Assembly: GCA_963749415.1 (NCBI GenBank)
Contig: CAVVMG010000001.1
Coordinates: 1,676,745-1,740,744 of the forward strand
Direction of reading: 5' to 3'
Origin: an uncultured Acidobacteriota bacterium
GTDB taxonomy: Bacteria > Actinomycetota > Acidimicrobiia > Spongiisociales > ZC4RG35
DNA length: 64,000 nucleotides
This document shows, one piece after another, positions 2,335 through 34,242 of this stretch (positions are counted from its first letter, which is position 1; every line of letters starts with the position of its first letter). The position numbers and the translations under genes were made by a program. Under the pieces are notes generated by a model. That model was not told where the DNA came from and made no database searches. It saw nothing but the letters and a program-made list of their open reading frames with translations.

Positions 2335-3945
2335 TGCCTCACATGCAGGACGACTTCCCGTTGAACCTGTCGACGCTCTACGACCGTTCCGTCTGGCTCC
2401 ATCCGAACCAGGAGATCATCTCGGTCGAGGCTGACCGTTCCCAGGTGCGCAGCAGTTATGGAGAAACCGATGCCCGGGTCCGGCGGCTGGCTACCGCCCT
2501 CGATGGGCTGGGAGTCGGTCGGGGCGACGCGGTGGCGACCTTCGCCTGGAACAACCGGAGACATCACGAGCTCTATTGGGCCACTGCCAACACCGGCCTG
2601 ATCTGCCACACGGTGAACATCCGGCTGTTCGCCGACCAGGTGGCCTACATCGTCAATCACGCAGGGGACCGGGTCATGTTCGTCGATCCCGACCTCGTCT
2701 CACTGCTGGCGCCGCTCGCCGGGCAGCTGGAGACCGTCGAGACCTATGTGGTCATGGGGCCGGAGGCCGACCCCGCGCTCCCGGGCTCCATCCCCTACGA
2801 GGACCTGATCGCCGATGTCCCCGAGCACGGCTCGTGGCCCGAGCTCGACGAGCGATCGCCGATGATGCTCTGTTACAGCTCAGGAACCACCGGCAACCCG
2901 AAAGGGGTGGCCTACACCCAGCGCTCCACCTACCTGCACACCATCTCCAACCTGGCCAATTACGCCATGACCGCCTCGGACAACGTGCTGCCCGTGGTCC
3001 CGATGTTCCACGCTTCGGCCTGGGGGTATCCATTCATGGCCGTGGCCCAGGGGGCCAAGCTCACCTATCCCGGGCCGGATCTCACCCCGGAGGGCCTGGT
3101 GCGCCTGTTCGAGGGCGAAAAGGTCACGTTCAGCGCGGGCGTGCCCACCGTGTGGCTGGGAATCAAGCAATACCTGGAGGCCCACCCCGAAGCCGACGTT
3201 TCTTCGATTCGTGCCTTCCTCTGCGGAGGGTCCGCCGTGCCCCGGGCGATGATCGAGTGGTTCTGGGTGGAGCGGGGGATTCGGGTAGTCCAGGGCTGGG
3301 GGATGACTGAGACCAACCCGGTGGCATCCACGGCGACGTTGAAACCGGAGATGGAGGAGTGGGACCTGCAACGACAGCTCGACTTCCTGGAGACGGCCGG
3401 GATGCCGATCGCGGGCCTCAAGGTGAAGATCGTGGACGACGTGGGCGAGGAGCTGCCCCATGACGGGGTCGCCTTCGGGGAGTTGTTGATCCGCGGGCCC
3501 TGGATCGCCGCCGAGTACTACCGAGACCCGCGCTCTGCCCGGTCATTCGAGGACGGGATGGCTGCGCACTGGTGATGTCGCCAAGATCACCCCCGAGGGC
3601 TACATCCGGATCACCGATCGGGCGAAGGATGTCATCAAGTCGGGTGGGGAGTGGATCTCGACCATCGACCTGGAGAACGCGATCATGGCCCACCCCGGCG
3701 TGGCCGAGGCCACGGTCGTCGGGCTCAAGCACGTCAAGTGGCAGGAGCGTCCGGCGGCGTTCGTGGTGCCCAACCCAGGGTCCGAAGTCTCCGAGGAGGA
3801 CGTGTTGGATTTCCTCGAGGACCGGGTGGCCAAGTGGTGGATGCCGGACAGGGTCGTGTTCATCGAGCAGATCCCGAAGACCGGCACCGGCAAGTTCGAC
3901 AAGAAGGTGGTCAGGGACCAGTACGCCGACCTGCTGCTGGACTAG
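2334..3945 (+). CDS. Long-chain fatty acid-CoA ligase (AMP-binding); frameshift at about 3555-3557
   Basis: YSSGTTGNPKG and QGWGMTE motifs; removing one base restores DGWLRTGDVAKITPEGYIRITDRAKDVIKSGGEWI and gives about 536 aa. Confidence 0.85.
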
Positions 3946-29940: not shown

Positions 29941-30933
29941 ATGGGACGGAGAACCAACCTGGCGCTGGCGGTGCTCCTGGTTTCGGCGATCGTCACCGGC
30001 CTCGCCAGTCAGGCGATAGGGGTCGACTGGCCCCTGGACACGGCCGTTGTCCATGGCGCAATGGCCCTGGGCATCCTCCTCCTCGCCCCGTGGAAGAGCA
30101 CCGTCGTGCGCCGGGGCCTGCCAAAGAAGCGACCCGGACGCAAGTTCTCCCTCGCCCTGTTGACCGTGGTCCTCATCACCCTGGCATCGGGACTGCTCCA
30201 TTCCTACGGAGAGGTCGCGCGCATTGGTCCGCTCACCGTGATGCAGATCCACGTGGGTGGTGCGGTCATAGCCCTCGCGCTCGCTGTCGACCATTTCCGC
30301 CGCCACCCGGTCAAGCCCCGGCACTTCGACCTCGACCGCAGGGCTTTCCTCCGCACCTCGGCGCTGACAGCGGCGGCTGCCGGCCTGTGGCTGGCTTGGG
30401 AGGGAACGCTTCAGGCGATCGACACCCCGGGCAGCGAGCGGCGGTTCACAGGGATGCACGAGCGGGGCTCCCATGATCCGTCGGCCCTGCCGGTGACCTC
30501 ATGGTTCGACGATGCCGTCCCCGACGTCGACGAAGAGGACTGGGAGGTGGACGCAGCCGGTCAGACCTTGACCCTGGCCCAGCTGGACGGGTTTCCCCAG
30601 GACACCTTCCCCGCGATCCTCGACTGCACCGGAGGTTGGTATTCCGAGCAGGAATGGACCGGGGTCCGGCTCGACCGCCTGCTCGAGGGCCAGGATGACC
30701 GCAGCTTCGTGGTGTGGTCGGCGACCGGCTATGCCCGGAGATTCCCGATCGCCGACTTGGACACCACCTGGCTGGTGACCCGCCTCGGGGGGGAGCCACT
30801 CAGTCCCGGGCATGGCTTCCCGGCACGGATCGTGTCCCCTGCCCGACGCGGGTTCTGGTGGGTGAAGTGGGTGACCCGGATCGAGTTGTCACCGCTGCCC
30901 TGGTGGGCTCAGTCTCCGTTCCCCCTCACTTGA
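29941..30933 (+). CDS. Membrane molybdopterin-dependent oxidoreductase (sulfite oxidase/MsrP-like domain)
   Basis: N-terminal TM helices; LDCTGGW, WTGVRL, HGFPARI, WVKWV. Confidence 0.8.
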   Translation: MGRRTNLALAVLLVSAIVTGLASQAIGVDWPLDTAVVHGAMALGILLLAPWKSTVVRRGLPKKRPGRKFSLALLTVVLITLASGLLHSYGEVARIGPLTVMQIHVGGAVIALALAVDHFRRHPVKPRHFDLDRRAFLRTSALTAAAAGLWLAWEGTLQAIDTPGSERRFTGMHERGSHDPSALPVTSWFDDAVPDVDEEDWEVDAAGQTLTLAQLDGFPQDTFPAILDCTGGWYSEQEWTGVRLDRLLEGQDDRSFVVWSATGYARRFPIADLDTTWLVTRLGGEPLSPGHGFPARIVSPARRGFWWVKWVTRIELSPLPWWAQSPFPLT

Positions 30934-30942
30934 GCGGGACGC

Positions 30943-31779
30943 TCACCCCAGCTCAACCGGGACGTTCACCAGTGAGCCGTACTCGGTCCACGATCCGTCA
31001 TAGTTCTTGACATCGGTGCGGCCGAGTAGCTCGGTGAGGACGAACCACGTATGGGAGGACCGCTCACCGATGCGGCAGTAGGTGATCACCTCTCCGCCGT
31101 TGACCCCGGTTCCTGCGTAGAGCTCCTTCAACTCATCTGCCGACTTGAAGGTCCCGTCCTCGTTCGCCGCCCGACCCCAAGGGATGTTGAGGGCGCCAGG
31201 GACGTGGCCCGCGACGTATGGCTGCTCCTGGGGCAGGTGGTCGGGCGCGATCTTCTCGCCGCTGAACTCCTCCGGGGAGCGAACGTCGATCAGGGTCGCC
31301 GAGCCTTGGCGGTCGATCACGTCCTGGCGGAAGGCCCGGATCTCGGGGCGCTCTACGCCGGCAATCGCATAGGTCGTGGGGTCGATCGACGGGATGTCGC
31401 CGGTCAGCGGGAGTGACTCCAGCTGCCACTTCTTACGACCGCCGTCGACGAGCTTCACATTCTCGAAGCCCCGATACTTGAGCAGCCAGTAGGCATACGC
31501 AGCGAACCAATTGTTGTTGCCGCCGTACAGCACCACCGTGGTTTCAGGCCCTACTCCAGCCGCTCCGAGAAGCGCGCTGAAACCGTCCTGGTCGAGATAG
31601 TCGCGACGGACCGGGTGATGGAGGTCGTCGGACCAGCTCCAGGCGATTGCGCCCGGGATGTGGTCCTTCTCGTAGAGCGTGGTGTCCTCGTCGACCTCGA
31701 TGATCCGGATCGCCGGGTCGTCGAGATGGTCGTTCAGCCACGCGGTCGACACGAGGGCATCAGGGTTGAAATATGTCAT
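30943..31779 (-). CDS. Sulfurtransferase (tandem rhodanese, CysA/SseA type)
   Basis: GHVPGA, YCRIGERS active loop, YDGSWTEY. Confidence 0.92.
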   Translation of the reverse strand: MTYFNPDALVSTAWLNDHLDDPAIRIIEVDEDTTLYEKDHIPGAIAWSWSDDLHHPVRRDYLDQDGFSALLGAAGVGPETTVVLYGGNNNWFAAYAYWLLKYRGFENVKLVDGGRKKWQLESLPLTGDIPSIDPTTYAIAGVERPEIRAFRQDVIDRQGSATLIDVRSPEEFSGEKIAPDHLPQEQPYVAGHVPGALNIPWGRAANEDGTFKSADELKELYAGTGVNGGEVITYCRIGERSSHTWFVLTELLGRTDVKNYDGSWTEYGSLVNVPVELG

Positions 31780-31842
31780 TCGATTTTGGCTCCTGTGTTG
31801 TGAGGCGAAACGCGGCGCCCAGGCTGTTGCCTGACGAACTCC

Positions 31843-31913
31843 CTCTCGGGTGGTGGCGTCGCTAGGAGCGGGGACGACGTGTTGCGCCGGCACCCGGGCT
31901 GACCACCCGAGAG
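31843..31913 (-). promoter_or_regulatory. Attenuator-like stem overlapping the Cys-rich leader ORF
   Basis: Perfect 12-bp inverted repeat CTCTCGGGTGGT/ACCACCCGAGAG at 31843-31854 and 31902-31913. Confidence 0.65.
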
Positions 31914-31951
31914 CATTCACAGATACAAGCGCACATCGTCATCGAGGACAC
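31862..31951 (-). CDS. Leaderless Cys-rich leader peptide (29 aa, MSSMTMCACICECSRVVSPGAGATRRPRS)
   Basis: GTG exactly 6 nt after a -10 hexamer; four alternating Cys codons; upstream of the sulfurtransferase; not in the ORF track. Confidence 0.7.
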   Translation of the reverse strand: MSSMTMCACICECSRVVSPGAGATRRPRS

Positions 31952-31957
31952 GGGGGG

Positions 31958-31986
31958 AAGATATGCGGTGTGATCGGGCAAGTCAA
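31958..31986 (-). promoter_or_regulatory. SigA-type promoter overlapping the argC stop codon
   Basis: TTGACT, 17-bp spacer, TATCTT. Confidence 0.75.
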
Positions 31987-32921
31987 TGTGGGACGTTCGC
32001 CTCGATGCCGTCGAGCTCGGGCAGACCCAGGGCGAGGTTGAGGTTCTGAAGGGCCTGCACCGCCGCCCCCTTGAGCAGGTTGTCCTCGGCGGCGACGACC
32101 ACCGCGTTCCGACCGTCGGAGCTGGTGTCGAACCCGCCGATCAGGATTCCCGGGCGACCCGTCCCGTCTTTCAGCTCCGGGATCTCATCCCGGATTTCGA
32201 TCAGGGGCTCGTCGCAGTACCTGCTGTCAAACCGGGCGCGGACCTCCTCGACGGCCATCGCGGTGCCGAGCGGGATGTGGGCGGTTACCAGCAAGCCACT
32301 GAAAGTCGGGTGGACATGGGGCATGAAACGCACCTCGATCCCCAATTGGCGGGTCGTCTCCCGCTCGTGGTTGTGCCCGACGAGCGTGTACGGCACCAGG
32401 TTGTCGGCGAGGCGATCCACGTCATTGCGAGGGCTCGGTGTGGACCCCGCGCCCGAGTAGCCGGAAACACCGAAGACAGCGGGCACCCCGGCGACCAAGT
32501 CGATCAAGGGGGCGAGCGCGATCTGGGCCGCGGTGGCGTAGCAGCCGGGGTTGGCGATCCGGGTGGCCCCTTTCAGCTCGGCACGTCGGAGCTCGGGCAA
32601 CCCGTACACCCAGGCGTCGTCGAAGCGGTGATCGGCAGAGATGTCGATGACCACTGTGTCGTCGTCGATCGCGGACATGTAGAGATCAGCTGCCCCATCA
32701 GGCAGGGCCAATACCACGGCATCGACATCGAAGTCAGAAAGTCGCGACGGGTCGATCGCCTCGAAGTGCGCCTCCTCGGTCTCCGGAACCTGCTGGCCGG
32801 CGAGCTCCCGGGAGCCGGCGAAGGCGAGCTCGAGAGACGGGTGTCCGCTGATCAGCGGGATGAGCCGGGACCCGGTATGGCCCCGGGCGCCGACTACGCC
32901 GACCCGGTGGCGCTCAGGCAT
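31983..32921 (-). CDS. argC: N-acetyl-gamma-glutamyl-phosphate reductase
   Basis: GVVGARGHTG, DISADHRF, NPGCY, GVSGYSGAG. Confidence 0.92.
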   Translation of the reverse strand: MPERHRVGVVGARGHTGSRLIPLISGHPSLELAFAGSRELAGQQVPETEEAHFEAIDPSRLSDFDVDAVVLALPDGAADLYMSAIDDDTVVIDISADHRFDDAWVYGLPELRRAELKGATRIANPGCYATAAQIALAPLIDLVAGVPAVFGVSGYSGAGSTPSPRNDVDRLADNLVPYTLVGHNHERETTRQLGIEVRFMPHVHPTFSGLLVTAHIPLGTAMAVEEVRARFDSRYCDEPLIEIRDEIPELKDGTGRPGILIGGFDTSSDGRNAVVVAAEDNLLKGAAVQALQNLNLALGLPELDGIEANVPH

Positions 32922-34242
32922 CGTCCGGGCCCAGGAAGGAGGCAGGAAGGGCGGCCACCGCGTCGACCCGGTCCGCAACACTGGAGAAATCTGTCTCTCC
33001 TCGCCAGAATACGGTCCAAGGGCCGCGCTTCACCGAGCCATCGCATTCCTCGGCATAAAAGGCGTTGAAGCCATTGTCGGTGCGCGACCGCCAGTAGAGG
33101 ATCGGGTGGTCGGCGACCAGCCGGGCCCAAACGGTTCGAGCGAGGCCTTCCCCGCGGGCGTCCTCGAGGATGGCGAACTTGTCGAGGTAGGCGAAGTCGC
33201 TCAGAGTGGCAACCAGGGCTCCGGCCCGGAAGCTCTCCGACACGTATGCGGAGGCCAGGTGGAGCCCATCCCACCAGTCGGGGGCCAGCGTTTGGCCGAA
33301 TGCCTCTTCGACCAACTTCTCGAACTGGGTCCTGTCGAGCGCGCCTTTGTCGCTGTGTTTCTCGATCAGTTCTCCCCTGCGGACCAGGGTGCCCGAGCCG
33401 CCGTGGGTGAAGAGCTCCTTGACCAGGCCCGAGGGAGTGGTGATCGAAACCGAGGTCGACAGCGGGGTGTCGTCGAGCAAGCGCTTGATCTCCTCGAGTT
33501 TCAGCCGCATCCCCGAGTGCACCCAACTCTGCGCGATCAGGCCCTCGAAATCAGAGGCCAGGTTGATCGATTCGATGACCTTGCCGTCGGCGTCGAGCAG
33601 TCCTCCGACGTCGGCGAGGAAGATGATCTTCATCGGCTGCACCGCGTGGACCAGGGCCCGCGTGGCCGAGTCGGCGTTGATGTTGACCAGTTGCCCCCCG
33701 GGCGCCACCCCGAGGCAGGTCAGGATGGGGATCGCGCCCGAGTCCACGATGGAGCGGATAAGGGGGAGGTGGACTTCGGTGGGCTCGCCGACGAGCCCGT
33801 ATCTCTCGCGGTCGACGTAACCGGCTTCGAACGCCCCCTCGGTGAGCCCGTGTGCTGCCACTCCCTGATCACGAACGGCTTCCACGAGGAGGATGTTCTG
33901 CTCGATGAAGGTGGCCCGGGCTGCATCCAACACGTCGGGCCCGGTGACCCTCAGGCCGTCGAGCCTGTCGTTGGGTAAGCCCCGTGTTTCCAGGGTCTCG
34001 TCCAGTTGCGGCCCGCCGCCGTGGATCACGATGGGGGTGAGCCCCACCGTGTGCAGGAAGGCGAGCGCAGCCGCGGTCTCTTCGAGGCGGTCGCGCATCA
34101 CAGCACCGCCGATCTTGATGACCGCGAACCGGGAGCGGTCGACCTCGGAGAACCGCTGCAGATAGGCGCGGATCTCTTTGCCATCGCTCATGTTGCTGAG
34201 TAAGTGGACGATGGTCTGGCGGACGTCGCGGTTGGTCGTCAT
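32914..34242 (-). CDS. argB: Acetylglutamate kinase with C-terminal NAT (DUF619) domain; Xanthomonas-type bifunctional NAGS/K
   Basis: VIKIGG, IHGGGPQ, NINAD, followed by YLDKFAI...WRSRTDN NAT domain; 442 aa. Confidence 0.88.
   Translation of the reverse strand: MTTNRDVRQTIVHLLSNMSDGKEIRAYLQRFSEVDRSRFAVIKIGGAVMRDRLEETAAALAFLHTVGLTPIVIHGGGPQLDETLETRGLPNDRLDGLRVTGPDVLDAARATFIEQNILLVEAVRDQGVAAHGLTEGAFEAGYVDRERYGLVGEPTEVHLPLIRSIVDSGAIPILTCLGVAPGGQLVNINADSATRALVHAVQPMKIIFLADVGGLLDADGKVIESINLASDFEGLIAQSWVHSGMRLKLEEIKRLLDDTPLSTSVSITTPSGLVKELFTHGGSGTLVRRGELIEKHSDKGALDRTQFEKLVEEAFGQTLAPDWWDGLHLASAYVSESFRAGALVATLSDFAYLDKFAILEDARGEGLARTVWARLVADHPILYWRSRTDNGFNAFYAEECDGSVKRGPWTVFWRGETDFSSVADRVDAVAALPASFLGPDDA

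Follow-up and report, generated by a model that had tools for sequence, protein, structure and literature searches.

Is the expression of a CysA2-type sulfurtransferase coupled to the supply of cysteine in an uncultured member of the Actinomycetota and, if so, by what device? This question is raised by a leader in a 64-kb stretch of contig CAVVMG010000001.1 (hereafter the window, i.e. the whole stretch of DNA that was analysed), where a short open reading frame (sORF) with alternating cysteine (Cys) codons stands before a rhodanese gene. In Mycobacterium smegmatis, a leaderless polycysteine open reading frame (ORF), Ms5788A, derepresses the CysA2 operon when cysteine is low, via sequestration of the Shine-Dalgarno sequence (SD) (bioRxiv 10.1101/834739). 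The leader described here is a real and conserved feature, and it is probably a leaderless cysteine-sensing ORF, acting as a ribosome-mediated translational attenuator of the CysA2-type sulfurtransferase by means of a two-state leader RNA. A first-pass annotation of the window, made from the letters alone, had read the locus as an Acidimicrobiia Cys-sensing leader with alternating Cys codons in front of a sulfurtransferase, and this reading is supported by the conservation of the leader and by the CysA2 orthology of the downstream gene. The class name also agrees with the source names of the 77-79% identical homologues ('Acidimicrobiia bacterium'); the class assignment is based on these source names, and some related contigs were labelled Acidobacteriota by their submitters.

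All positions follow the numbering of the window, and the whole leader feature lies on the minus strand, where it is intergenic and flanked by argC (31983-32981) and the rhodanese gene (30943-31779). The main features of the locus are the following:

31981-31986, minus strand: -35 hexamer TTGACT, overlapping the TGA stop of argC; TTGAC(T/A) is kept in 13 orthologous leaders whatever the upstream gene
31958-31963, minus strand: -10 hexamer TATCTT (TAnnnT), 17 nucleotides (nt) past the -35 hexamer and 6 nt (CCCCCC) ahead of the GTG
31862-31951, minus strand: leader sORF VSSMTMCACICECSRVVSPGAGATRRPRS, with its GTG at 31951, 29 codons and a TAG stop (31864-31862), predicted to be leaderless
31913-31933, minus strand: alternating Cys tract TGC GCT TGT ATC TGT GAA TGC (Cys codons 7, 9, 11 and 13)
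30943-31779, minus strand: two-domain rhodanese of 278 amino acids (aa), with its ATG at 31779 and the active-site loop CRIGERS (Pfam PF00581, E 2e-32)

The promoter, the spacing to the GTG, the 29-codon ORF and the C-A-C-I-C-E-C peptide that had been described beforehand were all found again, on the minus strand, when the sequence was re-read and scanned for promoters. In a consensus scan, TTGACT-17-TATCTT was the sole promoter-like site in the surrounding 1 kb, for which shuffles expect 0.1. The GTG start is preceded by no SD, and the distance from the -10 hexamer to the RTG start is 6-8 nt across the 13 leaders; we infer from the sequence that the mRNA starts at, or within one base of, the GTG and that the sORF is leaderless. 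The program-made ORF list carries the sORF as a 39-aa version with a TTG start (31862-31981), which was rejected because its first 10 codons are the promoter. No terminator-like site or U-tract was found by consensus scan in about 1 kb around the leader, which bears out the absence of a U-tract noted in the first-pass annotation, and no U-rich run follows the stem in any aligned orthologue. Searches against Rfam gave nothing at the gathering threshold across the 64-kb window, and only chance-level matches around the locus. It was further observed that the argC stop (31983-31985) lies inside the leader -35 hexamer (31981-31986) and that no terminator follows argC; in transcripts running on from the arg genes, the start of the sORF would no longer be at the 5' end, and the rhodanese SD would presumably be masked.

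Conservation of the leader was examined in 80 genomic and 80 metagenomic loci encoding relatives of the rhodanese, to which extra loci, graded from 99% down to 72% rhodanese identity, were added by protein search and exact-protein look-ups. The leader is present in 25/25 loci whose rhodanese is 71-99% identical, in the form of 15 distinct sequences, all from uncultured soil and sediment assemblies. A leader profile (nhmmer) found a single copy in the window and no match at any other fetched locus outside the 71-99% group. The promoter geometry, TTGAC(T/A), 17-18 nt, TAnnnT, 6-8 nt and RTG, is retained in 13 leaders with four different upstream genes; across the loci, the gene ahead of the leader is argC, a LytR-family gene, PadR plus HAAS, a ThiF-rhodanese gene or another. 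The leader is far beyond chance, since it is kept at every close orthologous locus that was examined. Leader peptides from the window and from orthologous loci read as follows:

Window: VSSMTMCACICECSR...
L164 (rhodanese 93% identical): VSAMTVCACICECSR
L166 (85%): ..MCACMCECSR
L167 (81%): MSGKTMCVCTCEPSR
L168 (80%): VSRMTMCMCLCESSR
L171 (77%): VSRMTMCACLCESSR
L181 (74%): MSRLTTCLCICESSR
L175 (76%): MSWLTMCMCMCMCMCKSSR...ACCQRS
L176 (76%): the peptide of L175 minus one TGYATG unit

The Cys tract stands out in the window and across the family. Indeed, the pattern C-x-C-x-C-x-C occurs once in the six frames of the 64-kb window, at this locus, for about 0.03 expected from a six-frame Cys frequency of 2.2%; no other alternating-Cys ORF is present in the window, the remaining C-x-C-x-C matches sitting inside long ORFs in other frames. 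Loss of the Cys codons in orthologues had been set beforehand as the finding that would speak against the earlier reading, and codons 7, 9 and 11 are Cys in 13/13 distinct full-length leaders, with TGC/TGT used 7/6, 4/9 and 0/13 times, respectively. The earlier count of four Cys holds in part: the three codons just named are invariant, and the fourth, stem-touching one (codon 13) is Cys in 5/13, Ser in 7/13 and Pro in 1/13 leaders, i.e. it is a Cys only in the clade of the window and in one other. The tract residues that separate the Cys are variable (A/V/M/L, I/M/T/L and E/K/D).

Several features suggest that the frame is translated. Serine 2 (Ser2) is conserved and encoded by TCC, TCG or TCT; the tract of the 96% identical locus L163 differs from that of the window by three synonymous changes only (GCT>GCC, ATC>ATT and GAA>GAG), and that of L164 shows the synonymous change TGC>TGT; all four indels in the sORF (+12, +6, -6 and -9 nt) are multiples of three; the frame and the length of the sORF are conserved; and the stop falls in one alignment column in 15/15 leaders, as TAG in nine, TAA in four and TGA in two. 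These observations bear on the explanation that the leader is a structured non-coding RNA, binding a ligand or a protein, in which the frame and the Cys codons are incidental, or that the ORF is due to chance. Such an explanation could invoke the RNA helices, which surpass all other parts in conservation and are retained in leaders with a reduced Cys tract (L082 and L178), as well as the fact that 30 codons without a stop are in themselves nothing exceptional in G+C-rich DNA. It is nevertheless very improbable in view of the synonymous-only tract changes in close relatives, the three different stop codons sharing one column, the indels that are all multiples of three, the three synonymous Ser2 codons, the absence of an Rfam match and the uniqueness of C-x-C-x-C-x-C in the window.

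The number of Cys in the tract varies from one to five across the family. The ORFs of L178-180 (MSVRRNCNCMGSRV..., two Cys) and of L082 (MSGWSICIGSRV..., one Cys) are shorter and apparently leadered, and retain the frame, the stop and all RNA elements. An additional CC pair near the C-terminus is found in L175-177, the only ones in the leader family. L175 and L177 were moreover seen to be near-identical to the contig of L176 (about 1311-1370), from which they differ by one TGYATG unit, with five versus four alternating Cys; this one-unit difference implies that the tract acts as a short tandem repeat that expands and contracts. Such variation in Cys number, even between near-identical contigs, argues against a function of the sORF product itself, for instance as a small Cys-rich metal binder or as an acceptor of persulfide from the rhodanese. 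Conservation of the alternating Cys motif and of Ser2 at the amino-acid level would suit such a peptide, and so would the placing of the ORF in cis to the gene of a sulfur-transfer enzyme; however, the positions that separate the Cys vary freely, the C-terminal half is constrained as nucleotides rather than as amino acids, and no conserved maturation or export genes lie nearby, the genomic contexts being different. A functional peptide is therefore considered highly unlikely.

The RNA elements that accompany the sORF were then located on the window:

31902-31913, minus strand: region 1, left arm of the 12-base-pair (bp) stem, CTCTCGGGTGGT, which begins with the third base of Cys codon 13 and is complementary to region 2 as well
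31889-31898, minus strand: region 2, CCCGGGTGCC, whose CCCGGG can pair with region 1 and whose GGGTG can pair with the anti-SD region
31864-31869, minus strand: anti-Shine-Dalgarno (anti-SD) GCTCCT, spanning the final bases of codon 28 (CGC), the whole of codon 29 (TCC) and the initial T of the stop
31855-31862, minus strand: segment f, GCGACGCC, 5' strand of the second conserved helix, just past the stop
31843-31854, minus strand: right arm of the 12-bp stem, ACCACCCGAGAG, starting 7 nt past the stop
31812-31819, minus strand: segment h, GGCGCCGC, 3' strand of the second helix, a conserved island in a variable spacer
31789-31794, minus strand: rhodanese SD AGGAGC, 9 nt ahead of the ATG; GGAGC is invariant in 15 leaders

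A perfect 12-bp stem that starts in the last Cys codon and closes past the stop had been reported earlier; it is present and forms part of the minimum-energy fold. A consensus fold was computed from the alignment of 13 leaders, and pairs were counted in the alignment of 15 leaders. Five helices were recognized: (i) the stem noted earlier, over 11 bp (51-61:112-122), is 99.4% paired, one of its pairs being UA in nine leaders, CG in five and UG in one, and another alternating between G-C and G-U; (ii) segments f and h (103-110:147-154), i.e. GCGACGCC with GGCGYCGC, are 90.7% paired, with an outer pair that is GC in seven leaders and AU in five; (iii) the CUCGGG of the left arm and the nearby CCCGRG (53-58:66-71) are 98.9% paired; (iv) G(R)G(Y)G of region 2 and CGCUC at the end of the ORF (69-79:88-98) are 92% paired, with double-sided changes at two pairs (one UA at 72:95, and AU in 2/13 at 79:88), the rest being G-U/A-U exchanges; and (v) GCUCCU and the rhodanese SD AGGAGC, over 6 bp, are 94% paired in the 15 leaders and essentially invariant, the probability of this anti-SD:SD pairing reaching 0.98 in ribosome-free folds in silico. 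The final Ser codon is TCC in 12/12 cases, unlike Ser2 with its three synonyms, which implies that the end of the sORF is constrained as RNA.

These helices define two folds, X (helices i and iv) and Y (helices iii, v and ii), which are unable to co-exist as nested structures. About eight orthologues have X as their minimum-energy structure and five have Y, and, when each fold is enforced, the free-energy difference ddG(Y-X) has a mean of +2.3 kcal/mol (standard deviation 5.5) for totals of -55 to -82; the largest departures are L163 and L081, the two leaders with a mutated anti-SD and the ones in which fold Y is lost. The Cys tract ends where region 1 starts, the alternative helices 1:5, 1:2, 2:3 and 3:4 are conserved, and the folds are near iso-energetic. 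The adjacent helices (i) and (ii) may in addition stack as an H-type pseudoknot, which would be reset to the closed fold by each finished translation of the sORF. In the minimum-energy fold of the window, the Cys tract pairs with the initiation region, as in Ms5788A; this pairing was rejected as a conserved mechanism, since across the family the energy of the duplex is no better than that of dinucleotide shuffles or non-cognate pairs (z -1.6 to +0.8).

The first-pass annotation had left the control open between a Rho-dependent and a translational one. The conserved anti-SD at the end of the ORF, the second helix and the alternative fold, none of which it had described, indicate translational control, and Rho is retained as a lesser rival. 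In Rho-dependent attenuation, the progress of the ribosome along the sORF would govern the access of Rho to the C-rich stretch around the stop (CCCCGCUCCUAGCGACGCCACCACCC), and with it whether transcription extends into the rhodanese gene. This stretch is G-poor and paired or free by turns in the two folds; no intrinsic terminator was found, and a mechanism of this type has been proposed for actinobacterial Cys leader peptides devoid of terminators (PMC1262725). The conserved bases are accounted for by covarying helices and by an exact complement of the SD, as expected for control of initiation, and the leader is short, with about 80 nt from stop to ATG, so that Rho as the main agent appears improbable. 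Rho-dependent control could operate alongside translational control.

The translational attenuator that is favoured here would operate as follows. A sigma-70-type promoter would start the mRNA at the GTG, which would place the leaderless ORF first on the transcript, with Cys at every second codon of the tract. In fold X, the 11-12-bp stem would join the segments that follow the tract and the stop, enclosing the 3' half of the ORF including the anti-SD GCUCCU; in fold Y, a hairpin between region 1 and CCCGRG, the helix between GCGACGCC and GGCGYCGC and the GCUCCU:AGGAGC pairing would together block initiation. With ample Cys-tRNA, the ribosome would reach the stop and occupy the anti-SD, segment f and the first part of the right arm, while region 1 pairs with region 2 behind it; once released, it would let the leader fall into fold Y or another closed fold, with the SD masked. 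With scarce Cys-tRNA, the ribosome would linger on the Cys tract and the anti-SD would be kept off the SD, either within fold X or paired with region 2, so that the SD would be exposed and the sulfurtransferase made. We infer the stalling at the Cys codons and the direction of the response from the model; the direction in which a stall opens the SD and finished translation closes it is favoured because it matches the induction of the mycobacterial operon at low cysteine.

The effect of ribosome position was modelled by masking the ribosome footprint in silico and predicting the accessibility of the SD in the 15 leaders, which share ancestry and are not independent samples. When codon 7, 9 or 11 occupies the A site, the mean SD accessibility rises from 0.14 to 0.23-0.28 (Wilcoxon p 0.0003-0.003 over these related leaders), and in six orthologues stalls at the Cys codons cause the anti-SD:SD pairing to be supplanted by pairing of region 2 with the anti-SD (P 0.85-0.99). 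When the ribosome is placed on the stop codon, its footprint takes in the anti-SD, segment f and the first part of the right arm; the 1:2 hairpin is then favoured (P 0.75) and the anti-SD:SD pairing is lost, the predicted accessibility of the SD going from 0.02 to 0.28 in L167, from 0.02 to 0.34 in L175 and from 0.01 to 0.39 in L176; this gain is greatest in the orthologues that have fold Y as ground state. As a guide to the direction of regulation, the modelling provides weak support, its effects being small and in part contradictory.

The reverse logic has to be weighed against these results. In this scheme, the anti-SD masks the SD until a ribosome finishes the sORF, a shortage of Cys-tRNA lowers the production of sulfurtransferase, and the leader serves cysteine sufficiency or overflow. 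It would explain why the stop is fixed directly after the anti-SD in 15/15 leaders, and it draws on the modelling in two ways: a ribosome at the stop abolishes the anti-SD:SD pairing and opens the SD most in the orthologues with fold Y as ground state (L167, L175 and L176), and the SD of the window is predicted to be closed by a stall at codon 11 or 13. Upstream translation is also known to unmask sites over a long range in the MS2 coat-replicase pair and in rpmI-rplT. The orthologous mycobacterial operon, however, goes up and not down under cysteine limitation; the unmasking provided by a terminating ribosome would be brief compared with a stall caused by starvation; in the family mean, the SD is predicted to open when ribosomes stall at the conserved Cys codons; and, to our knowledge, every amino-acid leader ORF raises expression on starvation. 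The reverse logic is accordingly judged unlikely, although it is the least unlikely of the alternatives to attenuation relieved by stalling.

Several points weigh against the attenuator proposed above and temper the confidence placed in it. The locus is absent from all RNA runs searched and present only in soil DNA metagenomes, so that transcription start, translation of the ORF and cysteine response are all predictions. The Cys codons alternate here, whereas they are consecutive in the validated examples, and the deep branches that have one or two Cys imply a stronger conservation of the RNA fold than of the Cys tract. Only a small gain in SD accessibility is predicted, and it is not specific to Cys codons: any ribosome on the ORF has a comparable effect, one at the stop giving 0.25, and a freed 5' end gives 0.23; in the window itself, a stall at codon 11 or 13 favours the anti-SD:SD pairing (P 0.86-0.96) and leaves the SD closed (0.03-0.08). 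Lastly, the variation in helix (iii) is one-sided only (U-A/U-G), with no double-sided changes, and the anti-SD:SD pairing likewise lacks double-sided covariation, which means that the conservation of the region 1:2 hairpin and of the anti-SD:SD pairing could partly reflect coding or the SD itself.

The identity of the downstream gene is clear from its sequence. The rhodanese aligns end to end with Mycobacterium tuberculosis CysA2 (PDB 3AAX/3AAY, E 1e-106), with which it has the CRIGERS loop in common, and by this comparison it is a CysA2 orthologue. The ATG at 31779 is taken as its start because the rhodaneses behind the aligned leaders start at the equivalent ATG behind AGGAGC and because CysA2 aligns from residue 5. 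A longer version starting at GTG 31920 (325 aa), which would overlap the leader, was rejected, the homologues sampled being 275-283 aa long with a few outliers; this in-frame GTG is regarded as an artefact, due to the frame being open upstream of the gene. An exact protein look-up of the window rhodanese returned no record.

Two observations concern the neighbourhood. Firstly, a gene convergent with the rhodanese gene (29941-30933, plus strand) encodes a protein of 330 aa whose N-terminal half is hydrophobic and whose C-terminal part holds a molybdopterin oxidoreductase domain of the sulfite-oxidase family; the protein shows weak matches to SoxC and SorT and is syntenic with the rhodanese in most orthologous loci. 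Secondly, in L178-L180, which belong to the 72% branch, a DUF4395-thioredoxin-like gene and a gene for a fusion of a PALP (cysteine-synthase-like) domain with a rhodanese follow the rhodanese on the same strand (2461-3843), and the leader of these loci may control a small sulfur or cysteine operon.

Two further, unrelated families of Cys-containing sORFs were found before orthologous rhodaneses in other Actinomycetota, at 51 and 17 loci. The larger one is Ms5788A-like (...TKRRAVDLCRVA...) and includes Streptomyces versions with two or three non-consecutive Cys. Members of this family (...LTKRRAVDLCRVA...) are found for example at L037 2643-2795, L041 2656-2769, L058 2713-2817 and L114 1257-1370; they carry a C-terminal poly-Cys run in Mycobacterium, and two or three non-consecutive Cys (e.g. 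CRVAAMLCRTF) in Streptomyces, Kitasatospora, Actinomadura, Nonomuraea, Nocardiopsis and Gordonia, and their non-Cys part is better conserved than the Cys. The second family, V[VI]RTRC.GLV.AMIP.RLCC(...), precedes rhodaneses at 60-72% identity in 17 loci (L002-L006, L009, L087-L091, L093, L095, L096, L099, L104 and L141; e.g. L006 about 2800-2909 and L089 about 1300-1398) and is probably another Cys-sensing leader. It has a single early Cys, then CC, CGC or CAC near the middle, and is reduced in L099 to a 10-codon remnant, MIPDRACCTG, which overlaps the stop of an upstream DUF59/SUF-like gene. A conserved box, TTGCACCTGCAATTCC (variants TTGCATCTGCAATTTCC and GACTTGCAATTCCCGA), was also observed 60-150 nt upstream of the rhodanese or of its sORF in L006, L009, L090, L091, L093 and L104, which belong to this second family, and in L008, L110 and L117; it is present as well at loci without the V[VI]RTRC sORF and may be an operator or promoter element.

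The occurrence of different sORFs at orthologous genes suggests, from sequence comparison, that the same solution was invented repeatedly at the same gene. If this holds, the cysA2-type rhodanese gene gained a Cys-codon sensor at least three times independently, in the form of three unrelated ORF families, and three unrelated families at one gene would point to a general and easily evolved coupling of sulfur metabolism to the charging of tRNA-Cys. Cysteine-responsive leaderless ORFs, so far demonstrated only in mycobacteria, would with this family extend to deep-branching uncultured Actinomycetota, and the wider interest would be that Cys-codon sensors are widespread and repeatedly evolved in Actinomycetota, with more than one architecture. 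The legible anatomy of the present leader (alternating Cys, a covarying stem, an anti-SD in the last two codons and two folds) makes it a convenient model, in which the number and spacing of the Cys codons that are needed could be studied, as could decision-making in translational attenuators that have no terminator. Both the sORF and the regulatory element are unannotated, having been overlooked by gene callers.

Among known systems, the closest are the mycobacterial polycysteine leaderless sORFs Ms5788A/Rv0815A of the 'Cys ribulon' (Canestrari et al. 2020, bioRxiv 10.1101/834739; Mol Microbiol 114:93). In both cases, an unannotated short ORF stands at the 5' end of the mRNA (here predicted), Cys codons are the sensor (here proposed), no intrinsic terminator is present, the downstream SD is masked by leader RNA (here predicted) and the locus includes CysA2. 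The differences are as follows: no sequence homology is found with Ms5788A (...TKRRAVDLCRVAGCCCCCCCC), whose motif RRA[VI]D[LF]CR[VI]A occurs in 51 other rhodanese loci and not in this family; the Cys alternate in the first half of the ORF here, whereas they are consecutive and C-terminal in Ms5788A; the predicted SD mask is a dedicated anti-SD at the end of the ORF within a two-fold switch, instead of the Cys tract; and the operon is monocistronic, in a host from a different class of Actinomycetota. Sequence comparison indicates that the leader is not homologous to the mycobacterial polycysteine ORFs and is of independent origin. No report of cysteine-responsive leaderless ORFs outside mycobacteria was found in the literature, in which later papers regard them as a mycobacterial group.

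In 2005, Cys-rich leader peptides had been predicted before cys/cbs operons of Mycobacterium, Propionibacterium acnes and Bifidobacterium longum (Seliverstov et al., PMC1262725), and proof of such leaders followed in M. smegmatis in 2020. Those peptides share with the present one the Cys codons, the lack of an obvious terminator and the actinobacterial hosts, but they carry runs of Cys near the stop and no conserved hairpins, whereas hairpins are the most conserved part here, and the genes regulated are cysK/cysE/cbs rather than a rhodanese. The classical trp, his, leu and ilv attenuators likewise have regulatory codons in a short leader ORF and overlapping helices 1:2, 2:3 and 3:4, among which the position of the ribosome picks the fold, as is proposed here. 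Their last helix is a terminator with a U-tract, in contrast to the anti-SD:SD pairing of the present leader, whose ORF is predicted to be leaderless and spans regions 1-3, and they have no counterpart of its additional long-range stem between region 1 and the post-stop segment. The ermC and cat genes are under translational attenuation, in which stalling of a ribosome within the leader ORF rearranges SD-sequestering hairpins, as is proposed for this leader; those systems respond to an antibiotic in conjunction with the nascent peptide, whereas the signal here would be the supply of charged tRNA-Cys. Judging from sequence and predicted structure, the family is thus akin in its working to the mycobacterial polycysteine ORFs, yet it is not a member of that group by descent or by anatomy.

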